Below are positions 2,564 through 64,000 of a DNA stretch of 64,000 nucleotides, one piece after another. A program made the position numbers and the translations under genes. The notes below the pieces were generated by a model. It was given only the letters and a program-made list of their open reading frames with translations. It searched no databases and was not told where the DNA came from. Each line of letters begins with the position of its first letter. Position 1 is the first letter of the stretch. The stretch spans positions 95,914,001 through 95,978,000 of the forward strand of contig OZ024740.1 in assembly GCA_964016885.1 (NCBI GenBank), read 5' to 3'. Source of the DNA: Eledone cirrhosa (Eukaryota).

Positions 2564-2726
<163 letters not shown>

Positions 2727-9451: not shown

Positions 9452-9496
<45 letters not shown>

Positions 9497-9579
9497 ATGT
9501 GTATATATATGTGTGTGTGTATGTGTGTATGTATATGTATGTGTGTGTGTATGTATGTGTGTATATGTATATATATATA

Positions 9580-9612
<33 letters not shown>

Positions 9613-9965: not shown

Positions 9966-10003
9966 TTGAAAAGATGGCTTTTGCAGACCCATCGAAACCG
10001 GTC
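9966..10003 (+). ncRNA. Minimal type I hammerhead ribozyme, U3-A8 variant (3' pLTR of PLE A)
   Basis: Same sequence as 5115-5152. Confidence 0.7.
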
Positions 10004-10169
10004 ATTTTCTATACCCTTTATTATTTCCTTACCTTATAAAATTATATGTTTTTTCACAAAAAAGTATTCTGTCTCTTATATATTCCATGTGCCATTACCA
10101 ACCTCAATTTTCTCTATAACCTTCGTTTTGTGTAGAAAATTACACTTTTCATATATATATATATATACA

Positions 10170-11926: not shown

Positions 11927-14110
11927 CACTGGTCTGCGTTTCAAAGCTTTTTTAAAAAGGTCAAGGGTTTTCCAAATGATTTAGGACCCTTTTTGCATGC
12001 TGAATTCAAAAATACAGTTTATTTTTCTGGGTCAGGTCTGGTTTCTAAGATATAGTCTATTTCTTTACCAGCATATTTTTCTAAAATATCGCAATCCAAG
12101 CGTTTATGGGCTTTGCTTTTGCAAAACCGGGTCGTGGGTAACCTTTAATAATTATTTTTATTTCTCTTTTCAGGTCTAGAAAAATGGATCGGAAGTGTAA
12201 AAACCATCCTAATAGGTTCTGTTACATCTGCAGACATGTGGTTCTTCCAGACCGTCAAGCAAAAATCACGGATTTTGTGAAGAAGGCATATCACGCTTAC
12301 TTTGGAGTCAAACTAGGGGACCAGGATAAGCTATTCGCTCCCCATATCTGCTGCAAAACATGTGTAGAGAACTTACGGGATTGGAGGAACAAGAAAAGGA
12401 AGAGTATGCCATTTGGTGTCCCAATGGTGTGGAGGGAAGGGAAATATCACGTTACCGACTGCTACTTTTGCATGACAAATCTAAAAGGCATCAATCGCAA
12501 GCACCATGTTCAATACCCTGATGTTCCTTCTGCCATAAAGCCAATCCCCATGGCCCCGATCTTCCTGTTCCTGAGCCAAATGTCACCATGGAATCTAGTT
12601 CTGATTCCGAATCTAGTGACATGATTGATACAGCTAAGTGTGATGAATACAGGTCAGAAGAGGACGACCAACCGGTGCCTTTGACCCAAGCCGAACTCAA
12701 TAACCTGACACGAGACCTGAACCTTTCGAAGGAGTCTGCTCAGCTACTGGGTTCTCGTCTTCGAGAAAAACGTCTACTGGCGCCAGGAACAACATTATTT
12801 GGTATCGGGACCGCGAGAGAGAATTTAGAAAATTCTTCATGTTTGATGAGGCATTTTCACTGGTCTACTGTAGCAATATTGCTGACCTGATTGAATTACT
12901 TGGTCTGAAGTATGTTGCTATGGAATGGAAACTTGTCATTGACTCATCTAACAGAAGTCTCAAAGCAGTTCTTCTGAATATCGGAAACAAGTTTACATCG
13001 ATCCCTGTTGGGCACTCAGTTGAAATAGAAGAATCCCACAAAAGCATGGAACGTCTGTTGTTTGCTCTGAAGTATCAGAAACATAAATGGTTGATCTGTG
13101 GAAATCTTAAAGTTGTTGGACTCATCCTAGGACTTCAAGGTGGTTACACAAAGTATCCATGATTTCTGTGCTTATGGGATAGCCGTGCTGATGACCAGCA
13201 TTATGTCAGACAAGAGTGGCCATTAAGACAAGGATTAACACCTGGATCACACATCGTCTTGTCCCACCCTCTTGTTGAACCGAGCAAGATATTGCTTCCA
13301 ACCCTGCACATCAAACTCGGTCGCATGAAGAACTTTGTAAAGGCATTGGACAGGGAAGGTGGAGGATTTGCTTTCCTCCATCAGAAGTTTCAACGAAAAA
13401 GCATGGAGAAAATTAAGGCAGGTATATTTGATATCCTTAAATAAGGGAACTCATCAAGGATACTAGTTTTGATGATGCACTGAATCCTGCTGAACTCTCT
13501 GCCTGGTTGTCCCTTAAGTCAGTCATTGAAAACTTCCTTGGCAACCACAGCAGTTCCCAGTATCAGAAAGTGGTTGATGAGTTAATGTATTATTTCCGCC
13601 GCCTTGGTGCGCGGGTGTCAGTGAAAATGCACTTCCTCCGGTCTCATCTGGACTATTTTCCAGAGAATTGTGGAGACATCAGTGAAGAACAAGGTGAGCG
13701 CTTTCACCAAGATATCAGTGTTATGGAGGAACGCTATCAAGGCCGATGGGATGTCAACTTTCTGGCCGACTACTGCTGGTGCCTAAAGAGGGATGCGCAG
13801 TCTGCTCAGCACAAACGGAAGTCCCTGAAGAGACCATTCATCCATGAGTAGCGTCCTTAGTTCATTATACTCTTCTTGCTATCTATTCAAAATATTTTGT
13901 AAGACTTCTGTGAATAAATCAGTCTAATATTTTCAATATTGCGTTTTATTCACCTTCTAATAGATCGGAATTTAGGATCTTTTTAATGTGCTAATATTTC
14001 ATTAACCTGATCTGATTGAGTAAAATTAGAATGATTTTTCGATTCAGTGCAAAAAACTGGCCTAAAATCATATATTATATGTTAGACCTTCAAAAAATCG
14101 CAGACAAGTG
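11927..14110 (+). mobile_element. Chapaev3-like (CMC superfamily) DNA transposon, 2184 bp, CAC...GTG termini, TAA target duplication
   Basis: TIRs cactggtctgcg / cgcagacaagtg; taa at 11924-11926 and 14111-14113; the reconstructed empty site aligns without gaps to the paralog at ~21440 (-). Confidence 0.85.
12184..13851 (+). pseudogene. Frameshifted Chapaev3-type transposase
   Basis: C/H-rich N-terminus (FCYIC, APHICCKTC, PMVWRE..H..DCYFC), IDSS, LHIKLG.MKNFVKA, KMHFL.SHLD.FPEN, SEEQGERFHQDI; split over five ORFs; ttttcag just upstream of the ATG may be a splice acceptor. Confidence 0.85.
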
Positions 14111-14136
14111 TAATCATTTGATCCAGAAATATTATA

Positions 14137-14275
14137 TTTACAAACAAACGAACCGGCATAATAATAAGTGTTCGGTAAACCGATAGTGCATGTATATATG
14201 TGTGCATATATGTATATATATACATACTACTGTACGTATGTTTACATATATGTATGTACGTATACATACATTCTT

Positions 14276-14276
<1 letters not shown>
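14137..14276 (+). mobile_element. Fragment of dispersed HHR family B (relative of the 466-bp satellite)
   Basis: Reverse-complement similarity to 15975-16175; direct similarity to 19560-19600. Confidence 0.65.
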
Positions 14277-14333
<57 letters not shown>

Positions 14334-14334
14334 G

Positions 14335-15681
14335 AAAAAGTTAGTCCTTCACCAGTGATCTTCCAACCATCATTGGTATGTCATCGCTTTAAAGACCATA
14401 TACCTCCGGTTGGTGCGAGCAACGGCTAAAAAAAGTCGTTGGGACATGTAAATAAAGGGGACACGAGAGTGTCAACAAACAAAGATGATGAAGCAATGAG
14501 AAGTGAGGAAGAACGAGTCAAGTCCCAAATTTCCATGAATATAAGTTCGGTGAAATCGTGAACGAGAGAGAATAAAGACCATCAAACCTGGTTGAAATGT
14601 GAGCAAGGAAGGAATTCCGTACAGGTCTAACGAGAGGAAGCAGGAATCTAGTCTGTGAATTCGGTGAACATAAGTTCTGTGAAATCGTAGACGAGAGCGA
14701 GAAAAAAAGCGAACCAGCCTGACCAAGAGAGCGAAAGAAAAGAATTACGCACAGGTCAAACGAGAAGAAGGAGGAGGAGGAGAGGTAGTAACAGAGAGTG
14801 AGTGAGTGAAGGGTGAGGAAGAGGCTAACAGCGAGAGTGACTGTTAGAGAGGGGAAAGATACAGAGAAAGAGGAAGCAGTAACAACGAAATATCGGGTCT
14901 CAGCGGGGGAAAAAATATGTGTAAATATGAGAATAAACGTGCTGCGTGGTTGCATTACCAATGATTTTTAGAAGATTACTGATGAAGGACTAACTTTTTC
15001 ACATGTAACCCATTAGCAGCCACGCAGCACGTTTATTCTCATATTTACACATATTTTTTCCCCCGCGATGACCCGTCTATTTCGTTCTTACTGCTTCCTC
15101 TTTCTCTGTATTTTACCCTCTCTAACAGCCTCTCTCTCTGTTAGCCTCTTCCTCACCCTTCACTCACTCACTCTCTGTTACTACCTCTCCACCTCCTCCT
15201 TCTTCCCGTTTGACCTGTGCGTAATTCTTTTCTTTCGTACTCTTGGTCAGGCTGGTTCACTCTTTTTTTTTTTTTTCTCTCTCTCGTCTACGATTTCACA
15301 GAACTTATGTTCACCGAATTCAAAGACTAGATTCCTTCTTCCCCCAGTTAGACCTGTACGGAATTCCTTCCTTGCTCACATTCCAAACAGGTTTGATGGT
15401 CTTTATTCTCTCTCTTTCACGATTTCACCGAACTTACATTCATTGAAATTTGGGATTTGAATCGTTCTTCCTCAATTTTCGTTGCTTCACCATCTTTGAT
15501 TGTTTACACTCTCGTGTCCCCTTTATTTACGTGTCCCAACGACTTTTTTTAGCCGTTGCTCGCACCAACCGGAGGTATATGGTCTTTAAAGCGATGAAAT
15601 ACCAATGATGGGTGGAAGATCACTGATGAAGGACTAATTTTTTCATATGTAACAAATTAGCAACCACGCAGCACGTTTATT

Positions 15682-15685
<4 letters not shown>
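14335..15685 (+). mobile_element. Non-coding element with PLE-type layout: inverted copy (14335-14953) + ~645-bp monomer with ~90-bp terminal direct repeat and ~40-nt tail
   Basis: The left arm is the reverse complement of the right arm; gat(t/c)actgatgaaggactaa...ccacgcagcacgtttattct occurs at ~14974 and ~15618; (TA)n flanks. Confidence 0.75.
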
Positions 15686-15744
<59 letters not shown>

Positions 15745-15766
15745 TATTTATATATGTATATATTTA

Positions 15767-15871
<105 letters not shown>

Positions 15872-15914
15872 ATATATGTGTATATATGTATGTATATAAA
15901 TATATATATATAAG

Positions 15915-16038
15915 TTGAAAAAAATGAAAACGAAATTTCATTTCTCACTCTTAAGATGGCACTTACTTAAATGTAAGTATGTATGTATACGTACATACAT
16001 ATATGTATACAGACGTACAGTAGCATGCATATATATAC

Positions 16039-16073
<35 letters not shown>

Positions 16074-16300
16074 CATATATATATACACATATGCATACAG
16101 GTACACATACATATATGCACGCATCAGTTTAGCCGACGTTTATTATAACGCCTGCTTTGTTCGTTTGTTTGTCAACAAATCGAACAGCCTGAATTTATGC
16201 CATACGGTGTTAAGGCAACCACGTCACCTTTTTGTTCAACACTGACACAGGAACGATGTACTAGTTTCAAGCTTGTTAGCTATCATCAGCACCGTTTACC
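15915..16300 (-). mobile_element. Family B dispersed retrozyme-like copy, HHR at 16254-16294
   Basis: Minus strand cggtg-CTGATGA-tagc-taacaa-gctt-GAAA-ctag-TA-catcg; motif order is colinear with the satellite unit. Confidence 0.8.
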
Positions 16301-16304
16301 CATC

Positions 16305-17700
16305 AGCAAGAGTAAATGGTATTGACTACATTTCTATAAAATATGTTATTATATCTATGATTTTGGGGAAACATTTTCTTCCTACATTAGTTTTAACAAT
16401 CAGATAAAAGGGGGGGGGGGGGGCGTAAACCAAATAATTTTTCTTTTCCTCTTATTGCGTTTAGTGTTAGAGAGAAGATTAGGTAAATAGTTAATATGTT
16501 CGGCGAAATCGCTGTTATTGAGGGCCTTATTATAATCACTACAGAAGGAGATAAGGTAGAAATTCTACGGCTAATGTTAGGAATAAGATTTGTAATGACT
16601 ATAGGTGGATGGCAAGACACTTTGTGTATATATCTTAAATTCTCGTTAGGTTTATGATAAGGTTTAAAAGAGGCAGTAAGTAGATCAAGAAAGTTAGTAT
16701 TAGTAAGATTCGTATCTATAGTCATTTTAAGGTTTAGGATACCAAAGGTATTGATTAAATCTTTACGGAATTTATCAAGGTTATGGTCGTTGGTGGTATG
16801 AGAAAATGTCAAACCGTCGTCTCGGTATAAACCGATATGATGGAACGGAAATTTCTCTTTAAGGGTGTGGAGGAGGAATAATCCTACTAAGTCACACACA
16901 TCAGCACTATCATATGAGCCCATCGCAACATCAACAGATTTATGAGGGCTTGATTTTATAACCCAAATACTTTCATTAGCACAGAGTACTGTTTCCTAGC
17001 ATGAAGATAATGTCTTATTCTAATTTAGAATTATTAATGAAAGGTCTTGCAAAATCTAAGGCTTTTGTTAATAAGGATTCAGTGATAGAGGGGTAAAAAT
17101 CAACAATATCAAATAGGGTAGAACTACACTTATTTTTTCCTTGTATTTTCTTAAACCAAGACATAACAGAGGATATATTTAACCATTGTGATAAGTCAGT
17201 CATAATTCTTATTTGAAGTATAATTATTCTTGAGATTTTTTTACTCGGAAGGCCAACTAAAGGTTTAGCAAGGTTAATTAGTCTACAGCTAGGTCGATTA
17301 GTAAAGTCTTGTTTATGGTCTTTAAGGGTAATATATTTTTTACGTTTAGTTAGTGTTTCAATCTGGTTATCTATTTTTAAAATACTAGCTAGGTTTTTAG
17401 TTTCATTATTAATGGTATTGTAGATATTAATGTTAGCTATTTGATATTTGGCGGTACGGCTATTTGTTTAAAGTTGGTTATACGAAATATTATTTACTTC
17501 AAAAAGATGTTTAGTTTATCAGAAAAAACGAAAGCGTTAATAGAGTGTTTAAAATTAGAAATATCGTTAGAGAGTTTTCAGTGAAAATTATTGTGGGAAA
17601 TACGGTATTTAATTTCACTAATTAAGTTAACTAGGTCTATTTCGAAGTTGCCCATGTCTTTAACTCTAGTTGGGTATTTGTGGGATTTAATGTCAAAATA
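16305..17700 (-). pseudogene. Degenerate PLE reverse transcriptase (YRDD type)
   Basis: FDIVDFYPSI, MGSYDSADVCDLVG, LYRDDGL, NFLD, PYHKPN..L.YI...SCHP, in broken frames. Confidence 0.88.
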
Positions 17701-18055
17701 GTGATTGGAATCAGCACAGAATTGTCCGTCGTAAATAATTGCCTTCCATTTCATTCTTTCAATGACTTGTTAAATTTTATCGATAAACAATTTGATTTAC
17801 GTATGGGTTTTTGTATGCGTGTGTTGATTTCTTATTACGTGCGTGCGAACGCACGCATTTCTATACGTATGCACGTATGTTATGAACCCTGGCTCTTTAT
17901 TGTAGACTTTTATGTGTAGGTATGTGGATGTGTGTGTAATATGGTTATATGCATGTTTATATATACGTGTGTAGGCACGTGGTTGTGTATGTGTATAATT
18001 ATTTTTGCTCGCATGTATCTGTATGTGCACGTATGTTTATTTTATCTTGTTTGTG

Positions 18056-18086
<31 letters not shown>

Positions 18087-18752
18087 GCATATGTGTGTGT
18101 GTGTTTATACGTGTGTATCATTATATGTGCTTGTATATGTGTGTGTGCGTGTGTATGTATGTATGTGTATATGTTTATATATATATATATATATATATGT
18201 ATACGCACATCTCGTGTATTTGTTTATTTTAAAGTTGTGTTAACGTTTAACCCCTCCCTCCACACACTCATACTTATCGTTGTCAACACGTCTCTTGTTT
18301 GTCTTTATTTCGTTTTTGACTTGGTATATTGTTTGTGTTTATTTATTTATTATTTCTTGTAAATATATGTGTATGTATTTATGTGCCTGTCTTTAGACGC
18401 TAGTGCTCTTATGTGAAAAAGTATACGTCGTTGTACTTTTTAAGTATATGCGCGTGGTTTAGTGTGTGTATGTTTAAGTTCTGAATAGTTATTGTTTATA
18501 TATATATATATATATTTCCCCTCTTCTTTTCGCCCGTTTTTTTTCTAAGCCACAAATCCATATTTAATAAAAACACCATGTTGTTTATTCAGTCTCACGA
18601 CTGAAAACAGTTATAATACATACTTTCAAGAAACCACTGGTAAATGAAATAATTATCTTATGTTGTTTATTAAATAACTAATACGCTCTGTAGCATATAT
18701 CGAGCACTCGTTTTTACTTTACCTTTCCGACGGAATTACTTCATTCATAAAT

Positions 18753-18791
<39 letters not shown>

Positions 18792-18795
<4 letters not shown>

Positions 18796-19600
18796 GTAAG
18801 TATATATGTATACGTACACACATATATGTATACAGACGTACAGTGGTATGTATATATATTTATACATGCATGCACACATACATATACGCCCAGCCGACTA
18901 ACTCAATCGATGTGCAAATTAGGCTGCTCAGCGGTTAATATGCATAAGGAAAATATATAATTTCAGACGTTCAACCATCTGACAGAAAAGCATACGATGC
19001 TGACGATAGCGAATAAGCTTGAAACTAGTACATCGTTCCTTTGTCAGTGTTGAGCAAAATGGTGACGATGGTTGCCCGAACAATGTACGGCGTATTTCGG
19101 GCTGTTTGTTTATGCTTTTCTGTCAGATGGTTGAATGTCTGAAAGTATATATTTTCCTTATGCATATTAACAGCTGAGCAGCCTAATTTGCATATCGATT
19201 GAGTTAGTCGGCCGGGTGCACAGAAACAAATAAATGGAAACGAATGAAACGAAATTTCAATTCTCACTCTTAGTACGGCTGGTACTTAAATGTAATTATG
19301 TATGTATACCTTCATACATATATGTATACAGACGTACAGTAGTTTGTATATATACAAATACATGCACAAATATCTATATGTATTTATGGGTTTACCGAAC
19401 AGTATATACTTTCAGACGTTCAACCAATCTGACAGTAAGGTATACGATGCTGACGATAGCTAATAAGCTTGAAACAAGTACATCGTTTCTCTGTCAGTTT
19501 TGAGCAAAAAGGTGACGATGGTTGCCTGAACAGTGTACCGCGTAATTCGGGCTGTTGTTAACAAACAAACCGAGCATTATAATAAATATTCGGTAAACAC
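18792..19600 (+). mobile_element. Rearranged family B cluster, HHRs at 18995-19035 and 19445-19485, with internal inversions
   Basis: cgatg-CTGACGA-tagc...gctt-GAAA-ctag(caag)-TA-catcg twice; 18888-18994 is inverted at ~19112-19219. Confidence 0.8.
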
Positions 19601-21153: not shown

Positions 21154-21212
21154 TAAAAAGTATTCTGTCTCTTATATATTCCATGTGCCATTACCAACCT
21201 CAATTTTCTCTC

Positions 21213-21260
<48 letters not shown>
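19610..21260. repeat. Complex (TA)n low-complexity tracts with an internal ~320-bp duplication
   Basis: Rare interruptions (taacata, tagtatatgta, tgtaatata) recur in the same order at ~20400-20690 and ~20720-20990. Confidence 0.75.
21156..21213 (+). mobile_element. Solo ~55-bp fragment of the PLE A 3' end
   Basis: aaaagtattctgtctcttatatattccatgtgccattaccaacctcaattttctct matches 10060-10115. Confidence 0.9.
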
Positions 21261-21384: not shown

Positions 21385-22072
21385 TGCCCGTTTACAATTG
21401 TTTCGCTACTCCGTATAATGCTTCTGGATCAGATGACTATGTATCATAATTGATCTGATTCAGTTGAAAATAATTAAGATATTTAAAAAAACAGAATGGC
21501 TCATCGGTTCTCACAGGAATATAAATTAAAATAATGTTACATAATATAATGTTCCATATATTAGTTTTTACTATGCTGCCTTTGTTTCATCAGCTGTCAG
21601 CCATAATCAAGCAGTACTCATCTGTCGAGGCTGCATTGTGTGAGATCTGCCTATGGGTAACAAGATGGCTGCCAAAGGGCATATTTACCTTACTAATTAG
21701 AGGGTGATTTCAGGGGAAGTAACTTCTCGAGAGATTAGATATTGTGTGTATTTTATAGTTAAGTGCTAGTATTTAAATTATTTAATTGAGAGACAATGTA
21801 GGGGAGGTAACTTATAATTATCGAGTTGTTCATAGCAATTTAACTTATTAGCTGCAATTAGAGATGGGGCTACATGACTAAGTTGGGTCAAAAACTCTAT
21901 TGGCGAAGGAATTAGCCCTTCGATGTTGACAGCTAATGGTTACCTCCGTTCTATCGTTAATTGGTAGAGGTCTTGATAGAGTTATGTAATACGCTTCCGT
22001 AACACAGAGATCACAAGATTTCCTTCGTCCATTGAACGGTTGTGCCCTAGCTACGATATCCCATTTTAGTGA

Positions 22073-22075
<3 letters not shown>
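21385..22075 (-). mobile_element. 3' fragment of the PLE D family (end of GIY-YIG + 3' UTR) with a long-stem-II HHR-like motif at 21393-21507
   Basis: Reverse complement aligns with 11305-11926; CCGATGA-gccattctg...cggagtagc-GAAA-caattg-TA. Confidence 0.8.
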
Positions 22076-25177
<3,102 letters not shown>

Positions 25178-28309: not shown

Positions 28310-28345
<36 letters not shown>

Positions 28346-28350
<5 letters not shown>

Positions 28351-31300
28351 CAAATAACGAAACGAAATTAATTTCGTTTCGTTTGTAACTCACTTTGTAT
28401 GACTGACGCTTAAACAATTAAGTTAAAAATGTACATCCATATATGTATACTGAAATACTAGTATGCATATGAATACACACACGTATACATATGTAGATGT
28501 ACCAAGTCTTTCACTGGTTACTTTACTGTGAGTATCCAGCTATTCTGTATGTAAACACACAGACAAACCGGTTTTTAGAGTCATACTGGTTTTTGAGGAA
28601 ACACCTTTCCACTATTCTCCAGAAAGCCAGACAAGGAATATTGAACTAGTTTCGTTGTTGTTACAACTCATCAGCAATATTTACCTATCTACCGGCCTTT
28701 CTGGAGAATCGTAAAAGCACATATCGTTATATGCTTTTTCTATGAAAATTAGTAGTGGGCAGACTAATTTGCATAGAGTGTGAGTACGTACCGATTCAAC
28801 GGAGACGATAAAAACAAATAACGAAACGAAATTAAATTTCGTTTCGTTTGTAACTCACTCTTGTATGACTGACGCTTAAACAATTAAGTTAAAAATGTAC
28901 ATCCATATATGTATACTGAAATACTAGTATGCATATGAATACACACACGTATACATATGTAGATGTACCAAGTCTTTCACTGGTTACTTTACTGTGAGTA
29001 TCCAGCTATTCTGTATGTAAACACACAGACAAACCGGTTTTTAGAGTCATACTGGTTTTTGAGGAAACACCTTTCCACTATTCTCCAGAAAGCCAGACAA
29101 GGAATAATGAACTAGTTTCGTTGTTGTTACAACTCATCAGCAATATTTACCTATCTACCGGCCTTTCTGGAGAATCGTAAAAGCACATATCGTTATATGC
29201 TTTTTCTATGAAAATTAGTAGTGGGCAGACTAATTTGCATAGAGTGTGAGTACGTACCGGTTCAACGGAGACGATAAAAACAAATAACGAAACGAAATTA
29301 AATTTCGTTTCGTTTGTAACTCACTTTGTATGACTGACGCTTAAACAATTAAGTTAAAAATGTACATCCATATATGTATACTGAAATACTAGTATGCATA
29401 TGAATACACACACGTATACATATGTAGATGTACCAAGTCTTTCACTGGTTACTTTACTGTGAGTATCCAGCTATTCTGTATGTAAACACACAGACAAACC
29501 GGTTTTTAGAGTCATACTGGTTTTTGAGGAAACACCTTTCCACTATTCTCCAGAAAGCCAGACAAGGAATATTGAACTAGTTTCGTTGTTGTTACAACTC
29601 ATCAGCAATATTTACCTATCTACCGGCCTTTCTGGAGAATCGTAAAAGCACATATCGTTATATGCTTTTTCTATGAAAATTAGTAGTGGGCAGACTAATT
29701 TGCATAGAGTGTGAGTACGTGCCGGTTCAACGGAGACGATAAAAACAAATAACGAAACGAAATTAAATTTCGTTTCGTTTGTAACTCACTTTTGTATGAC
29801 TGATGCTTAAACAATTAAGTTAAAAATGTACATCCATATATGTATACTGAAATACTAGTATGCATATGAATACACACACGTATACATATGTAGATGTACC
29901 AAGTCTTTCACTGGTTACTTTACTGTGAGTATCCAGCTATTCTGTATGTAAACACACAGACAAACCGGTTTTTAGAGTCATACTGGTTTTTGAGGAAACA
30001 CCTTTCCTCTATTCTCCAGAAAGCCAGACAAAGAATATTGAACTAGTTTCGTTGTTGTTACAACTCATCAGCAATATTTACCTATCTACCGGCCTTTCTG
30101 GAGAATCGTAAAAGCACATAACGTTATATGCTTTTTCTATGAAAATTAGTAGTGGGCAGACTAATTTGCATAGAGTGTGAGTACGTACCGGTTCAAAGGA
30201 GATGATAAAGACAAATAACGATACGAAATTAAATTTCGTTTCGTTTGTAACTCACTTTTGTATGACTGACGCGTAAACAATTAAGTTAAAAATGTACATC
30301 CATATATGTATACTGAAATACTAGTATGCATATGAATACACACACGTATACATATGTAGATGTACCAAGTCTTTCACTGGTTACTTTACTGTGAGTATCC
30401 AGCTATTCTGTATGTAAATACACAGACAAACCGGTTTTTAGAGTCATACTGGTTTTTGAGGAAACACCTTTCCTCTAATCTACAGAAAGCCAGACAAGGA
30501 ATATTGAACTAGTTTCGTTGTTGTTACAACTCATCAGCAATATTTACCTATCTACCGGCCTTTCTGGAGAATCGTAATAGCACACATCGTTATATGCTTT
30601 TTCTATGAAAATTAGTAGTGGGCAGACTAATTTGCATAGAGTGTGAGTACGTACCGGTTCAACGGAGACGATAAAAACAAATAACGAAACGAAATTAAAT
30701 TTCGTTTTGTTTGTAACTCACTTTTGTATGACTGACGCTTAAACAATTAAGTTAAAAATGTACATCCATATATGTATACTGAGATACTAGTATGCATATG
30801 AATACACACACGTATAGATATGTAGATGTACCAAGTCTTTCACTGGTTACTTTACTGTGAGTATCCAGCTATTCTGTATGTAAACACACAGACAAACCGG
30901 TTTTTAGAGTCATACTGGTTTTTGAGGAAACACATTTCCTCTATTCTCCAGAAAGCCAGACAAGGAATATTGAACTAGTTTCGTTGTTGTTACAACTCAT
31001 CAGCAATATTTACCTATCTACCGGCCTTTCTGGAGAATCGTAAAGCACATATCGTTATATGCTTTTTCTATGAAAATTAGTAGTGGGCAGACTAATTTGC
31101 ATAGAGTGTGAGTACGTACCGGTTCAACGGAGACGATAAAAACAAATAACGAAACGAAATTAATTTTCGTTTCGTTTGTAACTCACTTTTGTATGACTGA
31201 CGCTTAAACAATTAAGTTAAAAATGTACATCCATATATGTATACTGAAATACAAGTATGCATATGAATACACGCACGTATAGATATGTAGATGTACCAAG

Positions 31301-49300: not shown

Positions 49301-51471
49301 ACGGAGACGATAAAAACAAATAACGAAACGAAATTAATTTTCGTTTCGTTTGTAACTCACTTTTGTATGACTGACGCTTAAACAATTAAGTTAAAAATGT
49401 ACATCCATATATGTATACTGAAATACTAGTATGCATATGAATACACACATGTATACATATGTAGATGTACCAAGTCTTTCACTGGTTACTTTACTGTGAG
49501 TATCCAGCTATTCTGTATGTAAACACACAGGCAAACCGGTTTTTAGAGTCATACTGGTTTTTGAGGAAACACCTTTCCTCTATTCTCCAGAAAGCCAGAC
49601 AAAGAATATTGAACTAGTTTCGTTGTTGTTACAACTCATCAGCAATATTTACCTATCTACCGGCCTTTCTGGAGAATCGTAAAAGCACATATCGTTATAT
49701 GCTTTTTCTATGAAAATTAGTAGTGGGCAGACTAATTTGCATAGAGTGTGAGTACGTACCGGTTCAACGGAGACGATAAAGACAAATAACGATACGAAAT
49801 TAAATTTCGTTTCGTTTGTAACTCACTTTTGTATGACTGACGCGTAAACAATTAAGTTAAAAATGTACATCCATATATGTATACTGAAATACTAGTATGC
49901 ATATGAATACACACACGTATACATATGTAGATGTACCAAGTCTTTCACTGGTTACTTTACTGTGAGTATCCAGCTATTCTGTATGTAAACACACAGACAA
50001 ACCGGTTTTTAGAGTCATACTGGTTTTTGAGGAAACACCTTTCCACTATTCTACAGAAAGCCAGACAAGGAATATTGAACTAGTTTCGTTGTTGTTACAA
50101 CTCATCAGCAATATTTACCTATCTACCGGCCTTTCTGGAGAATCGTAAAAGCACATATCGTTATATGCTTTTTCTATGAAAATTAGTAGTGGGCAGACTA
50201 ATTTGCATAGAGTGTGAGTACGTATCGGTTCAACGGAGACGATAAAAACAAATAACGAAACGAAATTAAATTTCGTTTCGTTTGTAACTCACTTTTGTAT
50301 GACTGACGCTTAAACAATTAAGTTAAAAATGTACATCCATATATGTATACTGAAATACTAGTATGCATATGAATACACACACGTATACATATGTAGATGT
50401 ACCAAGTCTTTCACTGGTTACTTTACTGTGAGTATCCAGCTATTCTGTATGTAAACACACAGACAAACCGGTTTTTAGAGTCATACTGGTTTTTGAGGAA
50501 ACACCTTTCCTCTATTCTCTAGAAAGCCAGACAAGGAATATTGAACTAGTTTCGTTGTTGTTACAACTCATCAGCAATATTTACCTATCTACCGGCCTTT
50601 CTGGAGAATCGTAAAAGCACATATCGTTATATGCTTTTTCTATGAAAATTAGTAGTGGGCAGACTAATTTGCATAGAGTGTGAGTACGTACCGGTTCAAC
50701 GGAGACGATAAAAACAAATAACGAAACGAAATTAAATTTCGTTTCGTTTGTAACTCACTTTTGTATGACTGACGCTTAAACAATTAAGTTAAAAATGTAC
50801 ATCCATATATGTATACTGAAATACTAGTATGCATATGAATACACACACGTATACATATGTAGATGTACCAAGTCTTTCACTGGTTACTTTACTGTGAGTA
50901 TCCAGCTATTCTGTATGTAAACACACAGGCAAACCGGTTTTTAGAGTCATACTGGTTTTTGAGGAAACACCTTTCCTCTATTCTCCAGAAAGCCAGACAA
51001 GGAATATTGAACTAGTTTCGTTGTTGTTACAACTCATCAGCAATATTTACCTATCTACCGGCCTTTCTGGAGAATCGTAACAGCACATATCGTTATATGC
51101 TTTTTCTATGAAAATTAGTAGTGGGCAGACTAATTTGCATAGAGTGTGAGTACGTACCGGTTCAACGAAGACGATAAAAACAAATAACGAAACGAAATTA
51201 AATTTCGTTTCGTTTGTAACTCACTTTTGTATGACTGACGCTTAAACAATTAAATTAAAAATGTACATCCATATATGTATACTGGAATACTAGTATGCAT
51301 ATGAATACACACACGTATAAATATGCAGATGTACCAAGTCTTTCACTGGTTACTTTACTGTGAGTATCCAGCTATTCTGTATGTAAACACACAGACAAAC
51401 CGGTTTTTAGAGTCATACTGGTTTTTGAGGAAACACCTTTCCTCTATTCTCCAGAAAGCCAGACAAGGAAT
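28346..51471 (-). repeat. Tandem array of a 466-bp hammerhead-containing unit (49 complete copies + 1 partial); retrozyme-like satellite
   Basis: Unit starts at 28346, 28810, 29276, 29741, 30207 ... 51176; only a few substitutions per unit; HHR on the minus strand of each full unit. Confidence 0.97.
28637..28681 (-). ncRNA. Minimal type I hammerhead ribozyme (first of 49 in the array, repeating every ~466 bp)
   Basis: Minus strand aatattg-CTGATGA-gttgt-aaca-acaac-GAAA-ctag-TT-caatatt: 7-bp stem I, 5-bp stem II, palindromic CUAG stem III, GUU cleavage triplet. Confidence 0.93.
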
Positions 51472-52309
51472 GTAGTACTCACACTCTATGCAAATTAGTC
51501 TGCCCACTAATAACTTTCATAGAAAAAGCATATAACGATATGTGCTTTTACGATTCTCCAGAAAGGCCGGTAGATAGGTAAATATTGCTGATGAGTTGTA
51601 ACAACAACGAAACTAGTTCAATACTCCTTGTCTGGCTTTCTGGAGAATAGAGGAAAGGTGTTTCCTCAAAAACCAGTATGACTCTAAAAACCGGTTTGTC
51701 TGTGTGTTTACATACAGAATAGCTGGATACTCACAGTAAAGTAACCAGTGAAAGACTTGGTACATCTACATATGTATACGTGTGTGTATTCATATGCATA
51801 CTAGTATTTCAGTATACATATATGGATGTACATTTTTAACTTAATTGTTTAAGCGTCAGTCATACAAATGTGAGTTACAAACGAAACGAAATTTAATATC
51901 GTTTCGTTATTTGTTTTCATCGTCTCCGTTGAACCGGTACGTACTCACACTCTATGCAAATTAGTCTGCCCACTACTTATTTTCATAGAAAAAGCATATA
52001 ACGATATGTGCTTTTACGATTCTCCAGAAAGGCCGGTAGATAGTTAAGTATTGCTGATGAGTTGTAACAACAACGAAACTAGTTCAATATTCCTTGTCTG
52101 GCTTTCTGGAGAATAGAGGAAAGGTGTTTCCTCAAAAACCAGTTTGACTCTAAAAACCGGTTTGTCTGTGTGTTTACATACAGAATAGCTGGATACTCAC
52201 AGTAAAGTAACCAGTGAAAGACTTGGTACATCTACATATGTATACGTGTGTGTATTCATATGCATACTAGTATTTCAGTATACATATGTAAATTTTTAAC
52301 TTAATTGTT
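51472..52309 (+). repeat. Inverted ~1.8 copies of the 466-bp unit with two plus-strand HHRs (51581-51625, ~52047-52091)
   Basis: Reverse complement of the unit; ctgatga at 51588 and 52054; ends in (TA)n. Confidence 0.95.
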
Positions 52310-52381
52310 ATATGTATATATAATATATATATATATATCATATATATATTTATATATATATATATATAATATATATCATAA

Positions 52382-53480
52382 TCTATAAAGCTCAGCGTGT
52401 GGTCATGCTCCTTTCTTATAGAAACTACAATATAGAATTTCTTCAATTGAAATTTACAATTCAGTTTTCCAAATAGTTACGATTGCGTCTTGGCACATCT
52501 CATTTTTTCAATTTCACCCACAATTATGCAATAAATAGATAAAACTCAATATTTTACAATTTTTCTCAATCATTTAAACTGCTAAACTCTTTCCACTACC
52601 ATTCAAAATCTATACAACTTCATACTTTCTGCTACTTTTTCTTTCCAAGCTTGATGGTGATACTGTCCGTATTACTCTGTCATATCATCTGCTCACCTCT
52701 ATCTACAACCCACACATTTTGCTACTTTCTCTTTCATACATTCAAATTATTACATTTCATACGAAACGACAATTATTCAAAAGCAACAGATACATTTATT
52801 CAACAACAAGCGATAAATCTTTTTTAAAACCTCTTTTCCAAACGTATACAAACACACACTCACTTCAATAACAACAACAACAATCTGCATTTTTATAGAT
52901 AATGATAAACAATAATATCCTCTATGAGGTCACTAAACCTGCTAGAAACAGCAGCTAACTCTCCCCCATACCATACCCCTCCCTACTGTCTTAAATTTAG
53001 AAAACATATCTTCTATGAGGTCACTAAACCTGCTAGAAACAGCAGCTAACTCTCCCCCATATCACACCACTCCCTACTGTCTTAAATTTAGAAAACACAT
53101 ATCCTCTATCAGGACACTAAACCTGCTAGAAACAACAGCTAACTCTCCCTCATATCTCAACCCTCCCTACTGTCTTAAATTTAAAAAAAAGCCACAGGAA
53201 ACCATGCAGAACAACTCCATCGCAGCTCTGTTGTTCGGCTGACATCGTCTACGCGCGGGTTCCGCAAGTATTGTAAAATAATAAATTTCAACACTTTTTG
53301 GCACAGAGATAATATTCATAGGCGAAACTACGATTGTCACTGCTGGCGCAGCTCCTGCTTCCAGGTGTGCAATTCATTCACCCAGTGCCTGGCAGACAAA
53401 AAGGTGCTGCCATAAAATGGGTGGTGCAACCTAACTTTGGTAATTTAATGACCCCGAGCAACGCCGGGCTTTAATGGTAG
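52382..53480 (+). mobile_element. Probable non-autonomous Helitron
   Basis: A|TC start (atctataaagctcag); subterminal GC hairpin cccgagcaacgccggg ~12 nt before a TAG|T end (gtag rather than ctag); internal minisatellite. Confidence 0.62.
52916..53182. repeat. Minisatellite, three copies of ~91 bp
   Basis: tctat(g/c)agg(t/a)cactaaacctgctagaaaca... at 52921, 53012 and 53105. Confidence 0.92.
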
Positions 53481-53992: not shown

Positions 53993-56809
53993 ATGCCTTT
54001 TGCAGACCCACCATCACATTCACCCTCATGAAACGACAAGCTACAGACCCACACGCAACTGACCAACAAAATATAATCACACACAAAACTACATTTCCTT
54101 TTTTAGGGAAAAGCCTGAAATACCAGAATACTCGATGCCCCCCCCCCCCCCTCAGGAGAAACCAAAAATAATCAACCTCTCAAAGACACCTCTAACGAAC
54201 ACACAAATCAACATTTTAAGTAAGGGCCTGAAATTTACACCTCCACCACGTAAACCAAACTTCCCCGAAATGAAGGATGACATCATAGAATATTGCCGAA
54301 AGCTGCGACTAACGGAATTCTTCCACAACGACACCAACACTGAAGACGAATCACTGGTTAGATATAAAAGCAATTTCTGCCCCAAAAAGGGAAGAAATAA
54401 AGCACTGGACACGTACTGCGAACACATCACCAACTTTCCCTGTGAAAAAATTACAAATAAACAAACGAAATCAAACCTATCTACACACGAATGGTAAGAA
54501 TTATTCACACTTAGAAACAACCCTGAGATAACCATCAAAGAAGCCGATAAAGGCAGTACTGTTGTCATTATGAATGCGGACTACTATAGGACCCTCGCAC
54601 TTAACATTTTAGAAAACAACACATGCTATGAAAAAACAGAAAAATACAAACACACCAAAACAATGGGGAACCTTTTGACCTTACTGAATAAATACCGCAA
54701 CAGCTTAACCATAAAAGAGTTTAACTATATAAGCGACTTCAAATGCAATACAAGCTCTTTTTACGGCTTACCGAAACTCCACAAATGTAAACCCATAAAC
54801 GATGCATGTGACACCTCAACCAACAATTACATTGAACTAACACCACCAGAAGACCTAAAACTCAGGCCAATTATAGCAGGCCCTACATGTGAAACCCACA
54901 GACTTAGCAACTTTCTGGACATCCTACTGAAACCCTTTCTACAACATATACAGAGCTACATACGAGATGACCTTGAATGCTGAAACACCTCCCTAAAAAA
55001 GTAAGTGCAAATACAATTCTTGTCTCCTTTGACGTAATAAACCTCTACACAAACATACCCCACAACTATGGAATAACTGCAGTCCAATACTGCTTAACAC
55101 AAACCCATCAGAAATACCGACACGCATCAACAAAGATTATATCACTGACGGACTCCGCTTTATTCTACAAAATAACTACTTCACATTCAATGGTTCAACA
55201 TACAGACAAGTATCAGGTACTGCAATGGGCACGAAAGTAGCACCCACATATGCCAACCTAGTCATGGGATTCCATGAACAACAAATATACAGTCAGTCCC
55301 TTCTCTTATTTGGAGACTCTTTCCACACACACCCCAAAGCCAATTGGAAAATATATCTAGACGACTGCTTTATCCTATGGCAAGAGACATGAACTCACTT
55401 ACTATGTTTAAAAACATGATAAACAACATAGATAATAACATACAATTCACAATGGAATCCAATCCCAAGGAATTAGCCTTCTTGGATATTTTCATCTCTG
55501 TAATAGACGGGAAATTAGATACAGATATATTCTATAAACCCACAGATTCCAAGCAATACCTCTTTTTCATATCAAGTCACCCAAAACATACAAAACTTAA
55601 CATTCCTTACAATATGGCCAAACGTATATGTACCATAGTATCAGATCCACCTAAACGGGAGCAAAGACTAAAGGAACTAAAAGACACCCTTATCTTAAGT
55701 GCCTTTCCACTTGAAATAATCAACAATGGAATAGACAGGGCAAAACACCTAAATCCCCATCAACTTAACAATCCAAAACAGAAAACGACACTCAACACCC
55801 TGCCATATGTATCCACTTTCAACCCCAGAAATACCGAAATGTTTGATCACCTACACAAAAACCTCTCCATCCTACTTAAAGATGTAAAAATGAAGTCTAT
55901 TCTTGAAACACACAAGATCCTTAAAAGTAAAAGACAACCCAAATCACTTAAACGCATTCTCACTGGACCAAATATACCCAAACCAATCCTCAACCCTACA
56001 ATTACCAAATGTGGTAGAACAAACTATGGAACGTGCCTCTACCTCACCGAAGGACACAAATTTACATTTAAAGATGGCCAAACATTTACAGTAAAAAACA
56101 ATTTCACTTGCAACTCGGAGAACTTGATTTACGCAATAATTTGCGGTGGGTGCAAACACAACTACATAGGACAGACGGGCTCCTTATTACGCAAAATAAT
56201 GACCATCCACCGCCAACAAATCCGGGACGCTAACACAAGAAAAATCCCCTTGAGCAGCCATATTGCGAACTGCACAGGAATGACACTACCCAACTTTAAA
56301 ATCTTCCCCTTCTACAAGTGCTAAGATTCGTTCACACAGCAACAAAGAATAAACAAAGCAAATCTTTTCCTTAACAAATTTAAATCAAAACTAAACGGGT
56401 TATAACCCCAATAGAATTGTCATAAAATATAAACACACATACGCACGGAGTGACAGATATGTGTGTGTATGTGTGCATGTATATAATTATCACTACTATT
56501 AAAGACCAGAGACCAATTCTGTAGAATCAGGTTTATTCGTTGACAGACCATGCCTCTGTGTGACCAACACATCCATGTTAAACCCTGCACGTGCACACAC
56601 ATATATCTATATATATATATATGCGCACACATAATTCACCACTGTCGGTTGCGGGGACCAATTTACATGAAGAACTCAATGTGATCAGAATGACTTGTAT
56701 TTTAATTTCACTGTCCTAACTTCTTATATTATGGAAAAAATATGTGTATGTATGTATATATATATATATTTGGAGGCCATTTCTCTATGTGTGTGAGTGT
56801 ATGTATGTG

Positions 56810-56840
<31 letters not shown>

Positions 56841-57114
56841 ATGTATTGTGTGTGTATGTGTGTGTATGTATGTGTGTATCTGGATGTATGCGTATGTGTA
56901 TATATAAGTGTGTGTGTGTGTATATATATATATGTGTATGTGTATATATGTGTGTGTGTGTATGTATGTGTGTGTGGGTGTGTGTGTATGTGTGTATCTG
57001 GATGTATGTGTATGTATATATATATGTGTGTGTGTGTATATATATGGGTGTATATGTGTGTGTGTATGTGTGTATGTATATGTATGTGTGTGTGTATGTA
57101 TGTGTGTGTATATG

Positions 57115-57147
<33 letters not shown>

Positions 57148-57685
57148 ATGTATGTGTATGTGTGTGTTGATGTGGGTATTTGTGTATATATAGGTGTAAG
57201 TGCACTAAATCCCTTTCTATCACTCTCTCCTCTCCTACCGACCACAGGGAGATATATGTATGTATATTGCTTCCACCCCCTCACTGACACACAGCTGGCC
57301 ATCTGGCTAAATCTGACCTTTATAAAAAAAAACATTCCCCACAAATAACTCCTCATTCACTACCAGAAAGGCACACAGCAGTCAACTTGATGCTACCAAG
57401 ATGAAAACTACTATGAAATTCCACACTGAATTTTATACTTGAATTTTCAAATCTCAAATTTTAATTCTTCTTATTAATTTTTCTTAATATTAATCAACAT
57501 TTTAAAAGATGGCTTTTGCAAACCCATCGAAACCGGTCTTTTTTATACCCTTTATTATTTCCTTACCTTATAAAATTATATGTTTTTTCACAAACAAGTA
57601 TTTTGTCTCTTATATATTCCATGTGCCATTACCAACCTCAATTTTCTCTATAACCTTCGTTTTGTGTACAAACTTACACTTTTCA
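53993..57685 (+). mobile_element. Second, 5'-truncated and more degenerate copy of PLE A (RT + GIY-YIG pseudogene 54135-~56410, 3' UTR, HHR with G5U at 57501-57538)
   Basis: Colinear with 6438-10151; contains stops and frameshifts; same 3' terminus ttacacttttca followed by (TA)n. Confidence 0.93.
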
Positions 57686-57859
57686 TATATATATATATAT
57701 ATATATGTTTCGTTTCTGAATTTGTTTAGCAAGATTCTTTATCTGAAATCGTGTGTTGAAACCGATATTGTTATACTTTGGGAGGGTCATGTTGCCAATA
57801 AGAAACACACGCACCAGTTGCCTTCACTTCAATTTATTATATATTTATAAATTTATAAA

Positions 57860-59627: not shown

Positions 59628-61216
<1,589 letters not shown>

Positions 61217-61218
<2 letters not shown>

Positions 61219-64000
61219 GTGGGGAAGTGAAGAATCGGAGAATAGAACTTTAAAACATGTTTATTTAAAACAGCACCTACGTACGTTTTGCCCAGTTGGG
61301 CTTCTCAAGGGCATAAATAATCAAAAGTGTTCCTCATATTGCTCGGAAAGAGTTGTTGGGGTTAAAACCACATCAAGGTTCATTGCTCGCGAAAATAGCT
61401 TGTTTTGATTTTGCAGCAGGTCAAATGAGGTAACTCTGGCCTGTGTTAGGGCAGTCTTTCCGGGACAAATTTTTTTTTTTTTGCCGCATCTGTTTGTCTG
61501 AGGCTGGGTCTGGTATGCACGGATTGTATCCTGGGTGTTATTTTGCAGCGCCTGCCCGCCGGGGTGTTAAGACTTGTTGCAGGTAGATCCGGAGTACGGT
61601 TTCACTCCTCATCCTTAACCCATCTGCAGAAGGATATTTTTAACCGACGTGTACAATTTATCGCTGTATAAGCTCTGCTGTTGATGAACTCGGGGGGTGC
61701 AGTTATGATGTGGTAGAGCTCCATGGGGCAAATATCGCACTTCCTCTTGAAGTTGTACGGTGCAGCCCTGCCGACAATCTCCCAGTGCGTGGAGAAGCTG
61801 ATGTTTAAGTCCTTTAGTGATGTGATGTAGTCCGCGAGCGAAGTGGAGTGCCTTAGTTTTCTATTTGTGAAAGAGTGGAGATGTGTTCGAAACCTAATTT
61901 TGAACAGGCCGGAGGAAGCCCCTATATAATGTTTACCGCTATTGTGGCTAGCAATAGTGCATCTATATATAACCCTATCAGTCAAGCAGTATCCTCTAAG
62001 GTGGCAGGGTCCTCTGTCGCGGCAGTTTGCAATTTCTGTCGCGGTTCCGTCTATTTCCCACGGTAAGGCTATCATTGTTGCTGCCTACGTTCTAACCTAC
62101 GCTACCGCAGCTGTCGTTAGCACCATTACAACCTACAGCACGCGGGGTGGTGCGATTGTTATTCCGCACGTCATGTCCTGCATGTTCCCCAGTCATTTCG
62201 CGGTTATGCTGGTTGCGTCTGCGGATGCCGTTGCCAACACTATTGGATGCTGCCAGGGAGATGTTAAGGCCGATATAGTTATTATCAGGTGTAGGTGCGT
62301 CTGTGTCGAGGTGCTGTATTTTGGTGATCTTACTGTCGTTCATTGTTCCTATGATGTCTGCTAGGTTAGGAGTAGTAGAGAAGGATATTTTTATATTGTT
62401 CCTATTAAGAATTTTTCTATACCTATGGTTGGGCGGGAAGTTCTTCTCTAAGGCTTCGAAGAACATCCGGGGTATGTTGGAGGCCACACTCCGAGAGTAG
62501 CGGGGTTGGAACCATAGGACGTTACGGTGGCGATTACGTGTCCTTGTACTTTTGCTAAGGGTGGTTCCATCTAGGTGACGGCTCTTATGCGTGTTAATGC
62601 GCAGTCGCCCATTCGGTGTCCCTTGCACTTTATGATCGGGTGCACTCTTCCTACCTCTTACATGTTTATGTACACGAAGATGTTGGTTGGAAGGCGTCGG
62701 TAGTAGGCCGTCGCCTTTGTTGGTTTTGTAATACGGGAATAGTTCGAGTAATCTACAGTGTTCACCGTCGCCGTGGTCGTGGTCTTTAGTGCGGTTATCT
62801 ATACTATTACATCCGACTTCGACGAGGTCGCCGCTTGATCGGTTATAGGTATGGCTTACTATAACGTTCATTTTATGAGGGGGGTGGTTTCTAGAGCTAG
62901 CGTTAGGGATGTAGGAAATTCCTCGGTTAAAGCCGGCGCTTATCAAGGCCGTATTGTAGTAATCTTCCGCTTGGTTGAATATATCCTCATTGGCGGATAG
63001 CCTCGAGATTCGATGTGAGATACTATAGGCTATGGAGTTGAGAGTTTGCTTAGGGTGGTTGGAGGCATAATTAATATAAGAGAGGCACTCTCCAGGCTTA
63101 TGGTATAGCTTGTATAAGCCCGTACTCAACTCCAGGGTCACGTCCAGGAAGTTGACAACACTGTGGTTGAGGTCCATAGTTACGGATAGGCCGTATGACT
63201 TGAAGAACCTGTGTATATGTTTGTTAAGTTTCTCTATCCTAGGGGGTTTATGGTTCCTAACGGTAAACAGGGCGTCGTCCCTATATACACCTCCTTGTAG
63301 GGTCGGTATCTCTTCCCTCAGCTTATGTAGGAGGTATATCCCGACCAGGTCATTTGCTTGCGCTGAGTTACTGGACCCCATCGTAACATCGAAGTTATCA
63401 GGACGTTTGGTTCTGGTCCAGTGGGAGCCTTCGATCTGGATAATGGTTCTACGCGCCGCTAGAATTATGTCTATTTCTTTTTTAGTGAGGCTAGTGTTAG
63501 ATCTAGCTAAGATAAGTACCTTATTTAAGAGTATGGGGGAGATAGAGGCGTAGTAACTATCTATATCAAACTGGATGAATTTCAGGGTGGCTTTATCCGG
63601 CAACTCGGTGTTGCCCCAGAGGCAGACCTTAGCCTTTCTATTAAGCTCCAGTATTACTCTGTCGAGGATCACTTTACTAATCTTACCTATATATGATGCA
63701 GAGGGGCATATTAGTCTAATAGAGGGGCTTTCATTAAAGTCATATTTGTGATCCTTAAGAGAGAATTTAGGCGTCAGAGGGACATACGGTTTAGTGTACT
63801 TTTCTATTTCTAAGCTGGTGACTATATCCTTCCCTACTCTATTTATGTCATTTAGGGTACCAGAGGGTGTTTTTTTTGTAGTGTTTGTGTAGTTCCTTAT
63901 AGATGAATTTGTTATACTTACTCGCGTCCATCTTGTACATCTTTTTTGTTTTGTCGGAGGTAACGAAGAGGTGCGGGTCATTCTTGATCTTAGTTATTAG
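61217..64000 (-). mobile_element. PLE (YRDD-type RT ORF 62092-63981, GIY-YIG ORF 61602-62075, 3' UTR); runs off the window end
   Basis: LKDHK, RLICP, FDIDSYY, TMGS, YRDD, NFLDV, YHKP, SNHP; NCR....C.L...CL...VIY, HYIGAS..FKIRF..H, CDIC..E. Confidence 0.92.
61273..61312 (-). ncRNA. Degenerate hammerhead ribozyme (U3-A8 core, G12A)
   Basis: Minus strand gccc-TTGAGAA-gccc-aact-gggc-AAAA-cgtacg-TA-ggtgc. Confidence 0.6.

Follow-up and report, generated by a model that had tools for sequence, protein, structure and literature searches.

The 466-nt repeat locus

We analyzed 64,000 nt of the genome of Eledone cirrhosa (assembly GCA_964016885.1, contig OZ024740.1, forward-strand positions 95,914,001–95,978,000; hereafter the window), in which a long tandem array lies among several Penelope-like elements (PLEs). 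The array consists of 49.6 copies of a 466-bp unit at 98% according to Tandem Repeats Finder (TRF), its sense strand is the minus strand, and each unit contains a hammerhead ribozyme motif. Unit positions are numbered from the predicted hammerhead cut, +1 being the first base past the cut and 466 the last base ahead of the next one.

On the ribozyme strand the locus reads as a (TA)n run, an inverted partial copy, the direct copies, and a second (TA)n run (Table 1). This layout had been given in a preliminary description made from the sequence, and every coordinate agrees. The direct copies (the tailed arm) do extend past the end of the inverted copy (the short arm), by 69 nt (unit 302 versus 231) where about 70 nt had been estimated, and the sense array does start at 51471, at unit +5, 4 nt past the predicted cut. 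The short arm passes the predicted cut twice (after 51618 and after 52084). The open reading frame (ORF) list holds no frame of 150 amino acids or more within 28344–52309, so the locus is noncoding, as non-LTR (long terminal repeat) retrozymes are. The preliminary description had also recognized the same plan in a neighboring PLE, PLE A, with a 36-nt tail, and this too agrees, the element having an inverted arm, a direct arm, and an ORF for reverse transcriptase (RT) and a GIY-YIG domain.

Table 1. Features of the 466-nt repeat locus and of the PLEs discussed, in window coordinates
Feature	Position	Strand	Basis and remarks
(TA)n target run, tailed end	28313–28346		TRF and sequence
Tailed arm, 49.6 head-to-tail 466-nt units, from unit +5 (51471) to unit 302 (28344–28346)	28344–51471	−	TRF, alignment; 6- to 8-unit higher-order repeats
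69-nt tail, unit ~234–302, between two putative priming sites	28344–28412	−	BLAST pair 28413 with 52309
Hammerhead motif closest to the junction, tailed arm	51010–51040	−	Motif scan; predicted cut between 51010 and 51009
3 nt where the arms meet head to head: filler, or the short arm extended with a 1-nt deletion	51472–51474		Sequence
Short arm, without a tail, of 835 nt: unit 324–466, a complete unit, and unit 1–231	51475 (or 51476)–52309	+	Alignment
(TA)n target run, short end	52309–52376		TRF
PLE A, Neptune-like by motifs	2722–10151	+	Inverted arm 2722–4642, direct arm 4643–10151, RT and GIY-YIG frame 6958–8844
Decayed Hydra-like PLE, family B, candidate partner	16304–18749		RT fragment, minus strand, 16304–17802; pseudo-LTR (pLTR) end, plus strand, 18643–18749

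Two fixed ends, inverted arms, and TA flanks recur across the genome

A search of the 3.0-Gb genome with the unit gave 561 candidate regions, 39 of which were scored; one of these, C2:43129020, was left out of the parsed set. An exact pattern joining the tailed end to TA occurs 1,965 times genome-wide and the corresponding short-end pattern 656 times, with no occurrence of the control patterns. The 466-nt repeat is present at roughly 2,000 genomic places, mostly as two head-to-head arms. We parsed 186 elements: a first set of 125 (38 picked by similarity and 87 by the short-end pattern) and a second set of 61 picked by the tailed-end pattern. Clean two-arm elements with one tailed and one short end make up 105 of the 186, and nine more have one end beyond the stretch. 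The others are 46 elements called as one-armed (in several of them the partner arm is shorter than BLAST can detect), 13 complex elements, and 13 with other ends.

Loci picked by similarity carry no condition on their ends. Among their 67 outer ends, 33 fall at unit 296–302, 30 at unit 219–233, and four elsewhere, and a TA run adjoins 62, the target expected of a PLE. Family-wide, the repeat shows the further features of PLE insertions, namely an inverted, 5′-truncated, head-to-head copy and a tail on one arm between two fixed ends. These fixed ends, tail, inversion, and TA flanks are more than chance. The PLE integration signature that the preliminary description saw at the array ends is thus borne out well beyond the window: 63 of the 67 unselected ends lie in the two clusters, and other genomic copies prove to be inverted, tailed, and inserted in (TA)n.

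Local identical insertions (L082/L083, L119/L120, and L132) are segmental or assembly duplicates, and each was counted once. The unit was also found at 85%–99% identity in contigs of seven sequencing runs (X1 and X4–X9) from six organisms and six studies, so the family is shared beyond the E. cirrhosa genome.

The two arms probably start independently and mostly share one haplotype

Read from the flank inward, each arm is the complement of RNA starting at that arm's fixed site, as expected if each DNA end had primed a complementary DNA (cDNA). It is the short arm that has the more upstream stop in 49 of 96 loci. In 28 of the 96, the arm lengths rule out copying of one arm from the other by fold-back in either direction, a result that also tells against the 5′-end template switch of the preliminary description. 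Independent priming of the arms matches findings with a PLE protein in vitro, which cuts and extends both DNA strands and starts reverse transcription at two internal sites bounding the tail (PMC11167929; statements citing this paper, PMC7229834, PMC8557442, PMC3846280, or bioRxiv 10.64898/2026.07.22.740005 refer to excerpts of those sources).

The arms meet through an overlap of 1–5 nt in 39 of 79 loci, bluntly in nine, through filler in 26, and through a larger overlap in five. Near-symmetric junctions, with the two arms stopping within 20 nt of each other, are more frequent than expected (19 of 96 loci versus 8.4), so some fold-back or hairpin joining probably also occurs. We also considered whether the two 5′ ends lie on partner strands of predicted helices and rejected this (6 of 96 versus 5.3 when shuffled). 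At L284:669–735 both arms begin at +14, and the 65-nt unrelated filler between them resembles captured coding sequence.

Haplotype tests covered the first locus set (L031–L160), with the second 59 stretches left aside. At 61 family-polymorphic sites, mismatch is 0.9% within arms and 1.2% between the arms of a locus, compared with 21.7% between loci; the window's own arms differ by 1.4%. The arms differ at one site at most in 56 of 64 loci (4.4 expected), and 60 haplotypes occur among 106 loci. In 7 of 58 loci both arms are fixed for variants, nine in all, that no other sampled locus shows. Uniformity marks the young loci. Of the 36 full units in L129, whose arms measure 13.7 and 4.1 kb and share a private variant, 32 are identical, and in L075+L217 all 18 of 18 units are identical. 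The predicted cut site is crossed with exact length in all 265 motif-matched crossings, which argues against template jumping with added bases. Together, low variation within loci and haplotypes shared between arms point to one monomer sequence per insertion, most simply a circle. With a unit this short and polymorphic, the number of templates and turns used can be read locus by locus. Tandem duplications of 18 nt were seen inside single units of L064 and L057; in L064 the 18 nt just before the short end are duplicated in two adjacent units.

The copy number of an array is a different matter. Units of the window array differ at about seven sites on average, and near-identical pairs recur at lags of 6–8 units; 3-unit repeats were found in L035 and L057. 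The lagged pairs indicate that the window arm was partly amplified after insertion, so its 50 copies are not a count of RT turns.

The unit has a conserved hammerhead core and a strongly paired RNA

Our motif scan found one hammerhead per 466-nt unit, matching non-LTR retrozymes, in which a repeat of a few hundred nucleotides carries a type I hammerhead. The motif has a minimal type I core, a palindromic helix III, and U at position 17. An Rfam scan of the 64-kb window returned no match at the gathering score, including for the hammerhead. Core positions are invariant in 106–107 of 107 loci, and stem II carries a compensatory change in 26 loci. At position 17 (unit position 466), U is present in 254 of 265 motif-matched copies, C in 10, and another variant in one, with the canonical C17 copies restricted to one subfamily. 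Hammerheads with U17 cleave poorly.

The unit is strongly self-paired, as retrozymes are (fold z −9.85 as a linear and −8.2 as a circular molecule). Only 24 of the 61 polymorphic sites are paired, compared with 66% of all unit positions, and among common variants at paired sites, three are compensatory, 10 keep the pair, and seven break it. The invariant core, the fewer polymorphisms at paired sites, and the fold z together suggest selection at the RNA level. Unit 262–290, in the tail, forms a hairpin, and in the predicted fold a long stem covering +13 to +26 joins the two ends of the monomer by pairing. The unit RNA is predicted to self-cleave and to be expressed as a circular monomer.

Head-to-head junctions do not cluster at the predicted cut

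According to the preliminary description, the founder was copied from ribozyme-cleaved RNA and the polymerase switched template at its 5′ end, so that 5′ junctions should cluster at the cleavage site. Junction statistics were compiled with gapped refinement for 274 arms of at least 40 nt in 164 loci; ungapped refinement misplaced four arms of an indel-bearing subfamily and gave 14 stops at +1 to +12 where the gapped version gives 12. Left out of the arm counts were complex elements (9 + 4), shorter arms, arms whose 5′ end lay beyond the stretch or whose 3′ end was of another kind, and duplicates (L080, L083, and L120, plus the second L132 copy).

Junctions are distributed all round the unit, and the expected clustering does not appear. 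One arm starts at the cut, two start within 2 nt (2.9 expected), eight within 5 nt (6.5 expected), and 16 within 10 nt (12.3 expected). The cut site is crossed 411 times by the 265 arms with both ends, and both arms of the window locus cross it. Stops are most concentrated at the tail hairpin (unit 262–275, 18 versus 6.0 expected). What survives of the proposed origin is a 1.8-fold excess at +1 to +30 (30 stops versus 16.4 expected, P 0.002), an interval picked after the fact. It is seen on first approach (16 versus 5.1) and on later ones (14 versus 9.0), and the first-approach excess recurs in both pattern-picked sets (8 versus 3.4 and 7 versus 1.6). The excess is centered not at +1 but at +13 to +26 (17 versus 7.9), within the long stem, and stops are scarce just upstream of the cut (unit 447–466, 5 versus 11.3). 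It may reflect a structural pause or a minor route through trimmed, linear, cut RNA. Arms that had already passed the cut once stop at +1 to +12 four times (3.6 expected); with no excess in that interval, the +5 junction of the window arm is likely to be a chance stop. The head-to-head junction of PLE A lies about 510 nt upstream of PLE A's own cut.

Candidate partner enzymes

The preliminary description tied the satellite to the local machinery of PLE A, and this tie was not upheld: the unit shares no sequence with PLE A, and the tails differ (36 versus 69 nt). PLE A carries a U3-A8 hammerhead of the kind described in PMC4209133, cutting after 5152 and 10003, and its ends at about +110 and +146 from its own cut bound the 36-nt tail. 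Its C-terminal GIY-YIG domain, CX2-5CxxC linker, and DKG motif mark it as Neptune-like (PMC8557442), an assignment from motifs only, without a tree. At least 150 near-identical RT matches exist genome-wide, many in 777-amino-acid frames. A second PLE A copy, 5′-truncated and frameshifted, lies at 54007–57701, and a lone 60-nt PLE A end fragment lies in a TA run at 21155–21214.

Family B is Hydra-like by its RWK, DKT, and CxCX5C motifs and C-terminal endonuclease (PMC8557442, section 11), again from motifs only and without a tree. Its copy in the window is decayed; intact copies elsewhere have many open frames of 714 or 715 amino acids. Family B ends fall at +35–49 (20 of 36) and +101–120 (14 of 36), giving a tail of about 70 nt that opens with the same four bases as the unit tail, a weak hint. 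In 12 family B loci, no homology of the pLTR to the unit beyond simple repeats was present among the matches listed. Tail lengths are 36 nt for PLE A, about 36 nt for family F (46% amino acid identity to PLE A), about 70 nt for family B, 69 nt for the unit, and about 57 nt for repeat family C.

Two chimeras join the repeat to a PLE. L042+L211 (G000:C28:97322900–97329300) has a 4-unit tailed retrozyme arm head to head with a family B arm that ends at the B short end; it was later split by about 2.8 kb of RT sequence resembling a long interspersed nuclear element (LINE). L238:353–4090 has a tailed retrozyme arm, a 35-nt inverted retrozyme piece, and an arm of the Neptune-like family F that ends at the F short end. 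L076 and L133 were rejected as chimeras, as their repeats are nested beside PLE A. We also rejected the idea that L054 is an autonomous PLE whose pLTR is the unit: none of 29 other copies of the L054 ORF end carries the unit, and they have their own 3′ region instead. As a matter of judgement, we lean toward a Hydra-like partner as slightly the better half of the expectation, with a promiscuous or other enzyme clearly less likely and a Neptune-like one a little less likely again.

A double-primed insertion model and its alternatives

We propose that each two-armed element arises in one insertion event, in which PLE RT and endonuclease would cut both strands of a TA run, prime each at its own internal site on the RNA, and copy a predicted circular monomer for one or more turns; on balance we regard this as probable. 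Tandem transcripts would self-cleave at the conserved hammerhead, and the monomers would be ligated to circles. The DNA ends would then prime at unit 302 and about 233, respectively, the two sites whose signature is seen in the genome. Each cDNA would run upstream across the ligated cut without error and stop nearly at random, with a preference for the tail hairpin. Finally, the 3′ ends of both cDNAs would be joined head to head via short microhomology or filler. An arm may later grow by multi-unit duplications, as seen at the window locus, to 50 copies. Circular retrozyme RNAs and a PLE partner had been proposed earlier (PMC7229834; PMC4209133).

Several points weigh against this model. The U17 majority speaks against efficient cutting. 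In vitro, PLE insertion proceeds without a need for ribozyme cleavage, and uncut RNA is the main substrate (PMC11167929). The arms of L057 and L074 differ at six sites; an insertion can thus draw on two templates, as it did at these 2 of 64 loci at least. Identical units could also stem from recent tandem amplification or assembly polishing. The +1 to +30 enrichment and the dip at 447–466 are not predicted by a pure circle. As for the partner, among the autonomous PLE references tried none was found with a homologous pLTR. Tail length was rejected as a clade marker, as the Hydra-like family E, which has a U3-A8 hammerhead, shows a single end class (+61/62 in 17 of 17 ends). The chimeras were likewise rejected as proof of a partner: L042 and L238 are end-complementary, but they involve different clades, and one deletion between neighbors explains each.

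The same two-site, two-strand priming could have acted on an uncut multimer transcribed from a young, homogeneous array, with the ribozyme a passenger or acting at another step. Exact read-through of the cut site is equally expected from such a template, which also fits as well with cleavage being dispensable in vitro (PMC11167929) and with the predominance of U17; large arrays exist as donors. Older arrays, however, are heterogeneous, as the roughly seven differing sites between window units and the 3-mer repeats of L035 and L057 illustrate, whereas daughters show no excess of inherited within-locus variation (0.86% at family-polymorphic versus 0.87% at other sites). The 60 haplotypes are almost always locus-pure, and the ribozyme shows both an invariant core and a compensatory change in its stem. 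We consider an uncut template unlikely. Lower still in our estimation is the model of the preliminary description, in which RT copies a linear, ribozyme-cut RNA to its 5′ end, trimmed by 4 nt in the window, and then switches template. The window junction at +5 agrees with it, as do the +1 to +30 excess, chiefly on first approach and with its dip just upstream, and L138 and L234, in which both arms stop at +1 to +30 on the first pass; a minor linear-template route is plausible for perhaps 5% of arms. As a general account it is improbable, since arms starting within 2 nt of the cut are no more numerous than expected, the excess peaks away from +1, multi-turn arms show none at +1 to +12, and a switch would leave both the fixed second end and the loci in which fold-back is impossible unexplained.

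Single priming followed by fold-back or self-priming, with the inverted arm a copy of the first cDNA, is close to an idea in PMC3846280. It would directly explain the shared haplotypes and draws on the excess of near-symmetric junctions and on the tail hairpin as a stop hotspot, and arm lengths permit it in one direction or the other in 68 of 96 loci. For the remaining 28 neither direction works, and the 68 would need both directions; nor does fold-back say why the second arm should stop at a single fixed, TA-adjoining site, or why the arms of two loci should differ in haplotype. It is, in our view, even less probable than a switch on linear RNA. An artefactual inversion, arising in assembly or from fold-back reads, or a DNA-level satellite palindrome formed without RT would suit the observation that no contig among those of the sequencing runs examined bridges the junction at 51471, and the 50-unit array could be mis-sized. 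Against this, 105 dispersed loci have the same layout and fixed ends, the short arm of the window bears private changes of its own, and the tailed end is joined to TA in contigs of other runs (12 in X1 and one in X5). We give such an origin hardly any credence.

We put forward more tentatively, as a possibility short of an even chance, that the family records double-primed rolling-circle retrotransposition, in which a PLE dimer primes both strands on one ribozyme-made circle for up to about 30 turns per event (the 13.7-kb arm of L129) and can pair retrozyme RNA with PLE mRNA within one insertion. If so, tail, inversion, and tandem structure would have a common explanation, and satellite arrays would be born whole.

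Relation to known elements

In L1 twin priming, the two target strands prime two cDNAs and an inversion results, as proposed here for the 466-nt repeat. The L1 cDNAs copy separate, non-overlapping stretches of a single linear RNA, with a variable second site, whereas the arms of the 466-nt repeat overlap fully and both sites are fixed. From its sequence, the repeat appears to work like a nonautonomous PLE and has the sequence characteristics of a non-LTR retrozyme.

Animal non-LTR retrozymes (Cervera and de la Peña, 2020; PMC7229834) are likewise noncoding tandem repeats, each some few hundred nucleotides in length, with one type I hammerhead per unit; they too are strongly self-paired and occur as dimers to about 50-mers at many dispersed loci. 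They differ in having a canonical ribozyme and units of 170–400 nt, compared with the minimal, PLE-type motif and 466-nt unit described here, and the word "inverted" does not occur in the available text of that paper. Their expression and circles were demonstrated (PMC7229834), whereas for the 466-nt repeat both are predicted. A recent preprint treating retrozymes as nonautonomous PLE derivatives (Li, Clavereau, and Pollet, 2026; bioRxiv 10.64898/2026.07.22.740005) reaches the same conclusion, that PLE machinery moves the repeats. Its evidence is co-occurrence and pLTR homology, and in its available text "tail" and "junction" are absent; the present evidence lies in the insertion ends, and no pLTR homologue was found.

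The repeat shares with PLE insertions (Craig et al., 2021, PMC8557442; Arkhipova et al., 2013, PMC3846280) the inverted, 5′-truncated copy, the tail at one end, and the (TA)n bias. The reported PLE tail is 30–40 nt (PMC8557442; PMC3846280); that of the unit is 69 nt, the unit has no ORF, and either arm can be many units long. Nonautonomous, multicopy, head-to-tail Chlamys elements are mentioned for PLEs in the same two papers. Poseidon PAc in vitro (Frangieh et al., 2024; PMC11167929) is similar in its two internal RT starts bounding the tail, the cutting and extension of both strands, the AT-rich target, and a predicted dimer. It differs in being autonomous, in using a linear template, and in that cleavage is dispensable; the excerpted text gives no account of a head-to-head join or of multiple turns.

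The dependence of retrozymes on PLEs has thus been proposed before (PMC7229834; bioRxiv 10.64898/2026.07.22.740005), and for PLEs both tail and inversion were already known. No account of retrozyme insertions with two arms and a tail was found in the literature searched, which did not extend to subscription journals or preprint supplements; nor did it yield evidence from end signatures for a retrozyme, or from haplotypes for an event with two primers, one monomer, and several turns. The family bears on two questions raised by the papers cited here, namely which enzyme moves animal retrozymes and how the tandem, inverted, tailed insertions of PLEs originate. The link between PLEs and retrozymes has so far consisted of co-occurrence and pLTR similarity; here, the ends of the insertions show it, in a family numbering about 2,000 copies. 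The family offers a compact RNA with two predicted start sites, and both clades of candidate enzyme have many open frames in the genome that carries it.

Other features of the window

Hammerhead repeat family C occurs at 15910–16300 (minus strand) and 18791–19600, with the same palindromic helix III start and TA flanks. Its two fixed ends are separated by about 57 nt, its resemblance to the 466-nt unit lies around the short end, and it gave 2,489 candidate regions genome-wide. At 15910–18749 a family C arm runs straight into the decayed family B RT fragment, and the B pLTR end lies there in the opposite orientation; this may be a chimera or a nested insertion. Fragments of more Hydra-like PLEs (families D and E) lie at 21518–25047, 10170–11856, and 61218–64000. 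Several palindromic, TA-flanked elements resembling two-armed insertions of other families lie at 1201–1390, 1550–1594, 1599–2317, 14190–15825, and 60763–61050. Three tandem copies of a 91- to 93-bp unit were found by TRF at 52915–53188, at a distance of 500 bp from the short end. At 11870–14130 lie broken frames of a Cys-rich protein without a Pfam match, which possibly belong to a DNA transposon.

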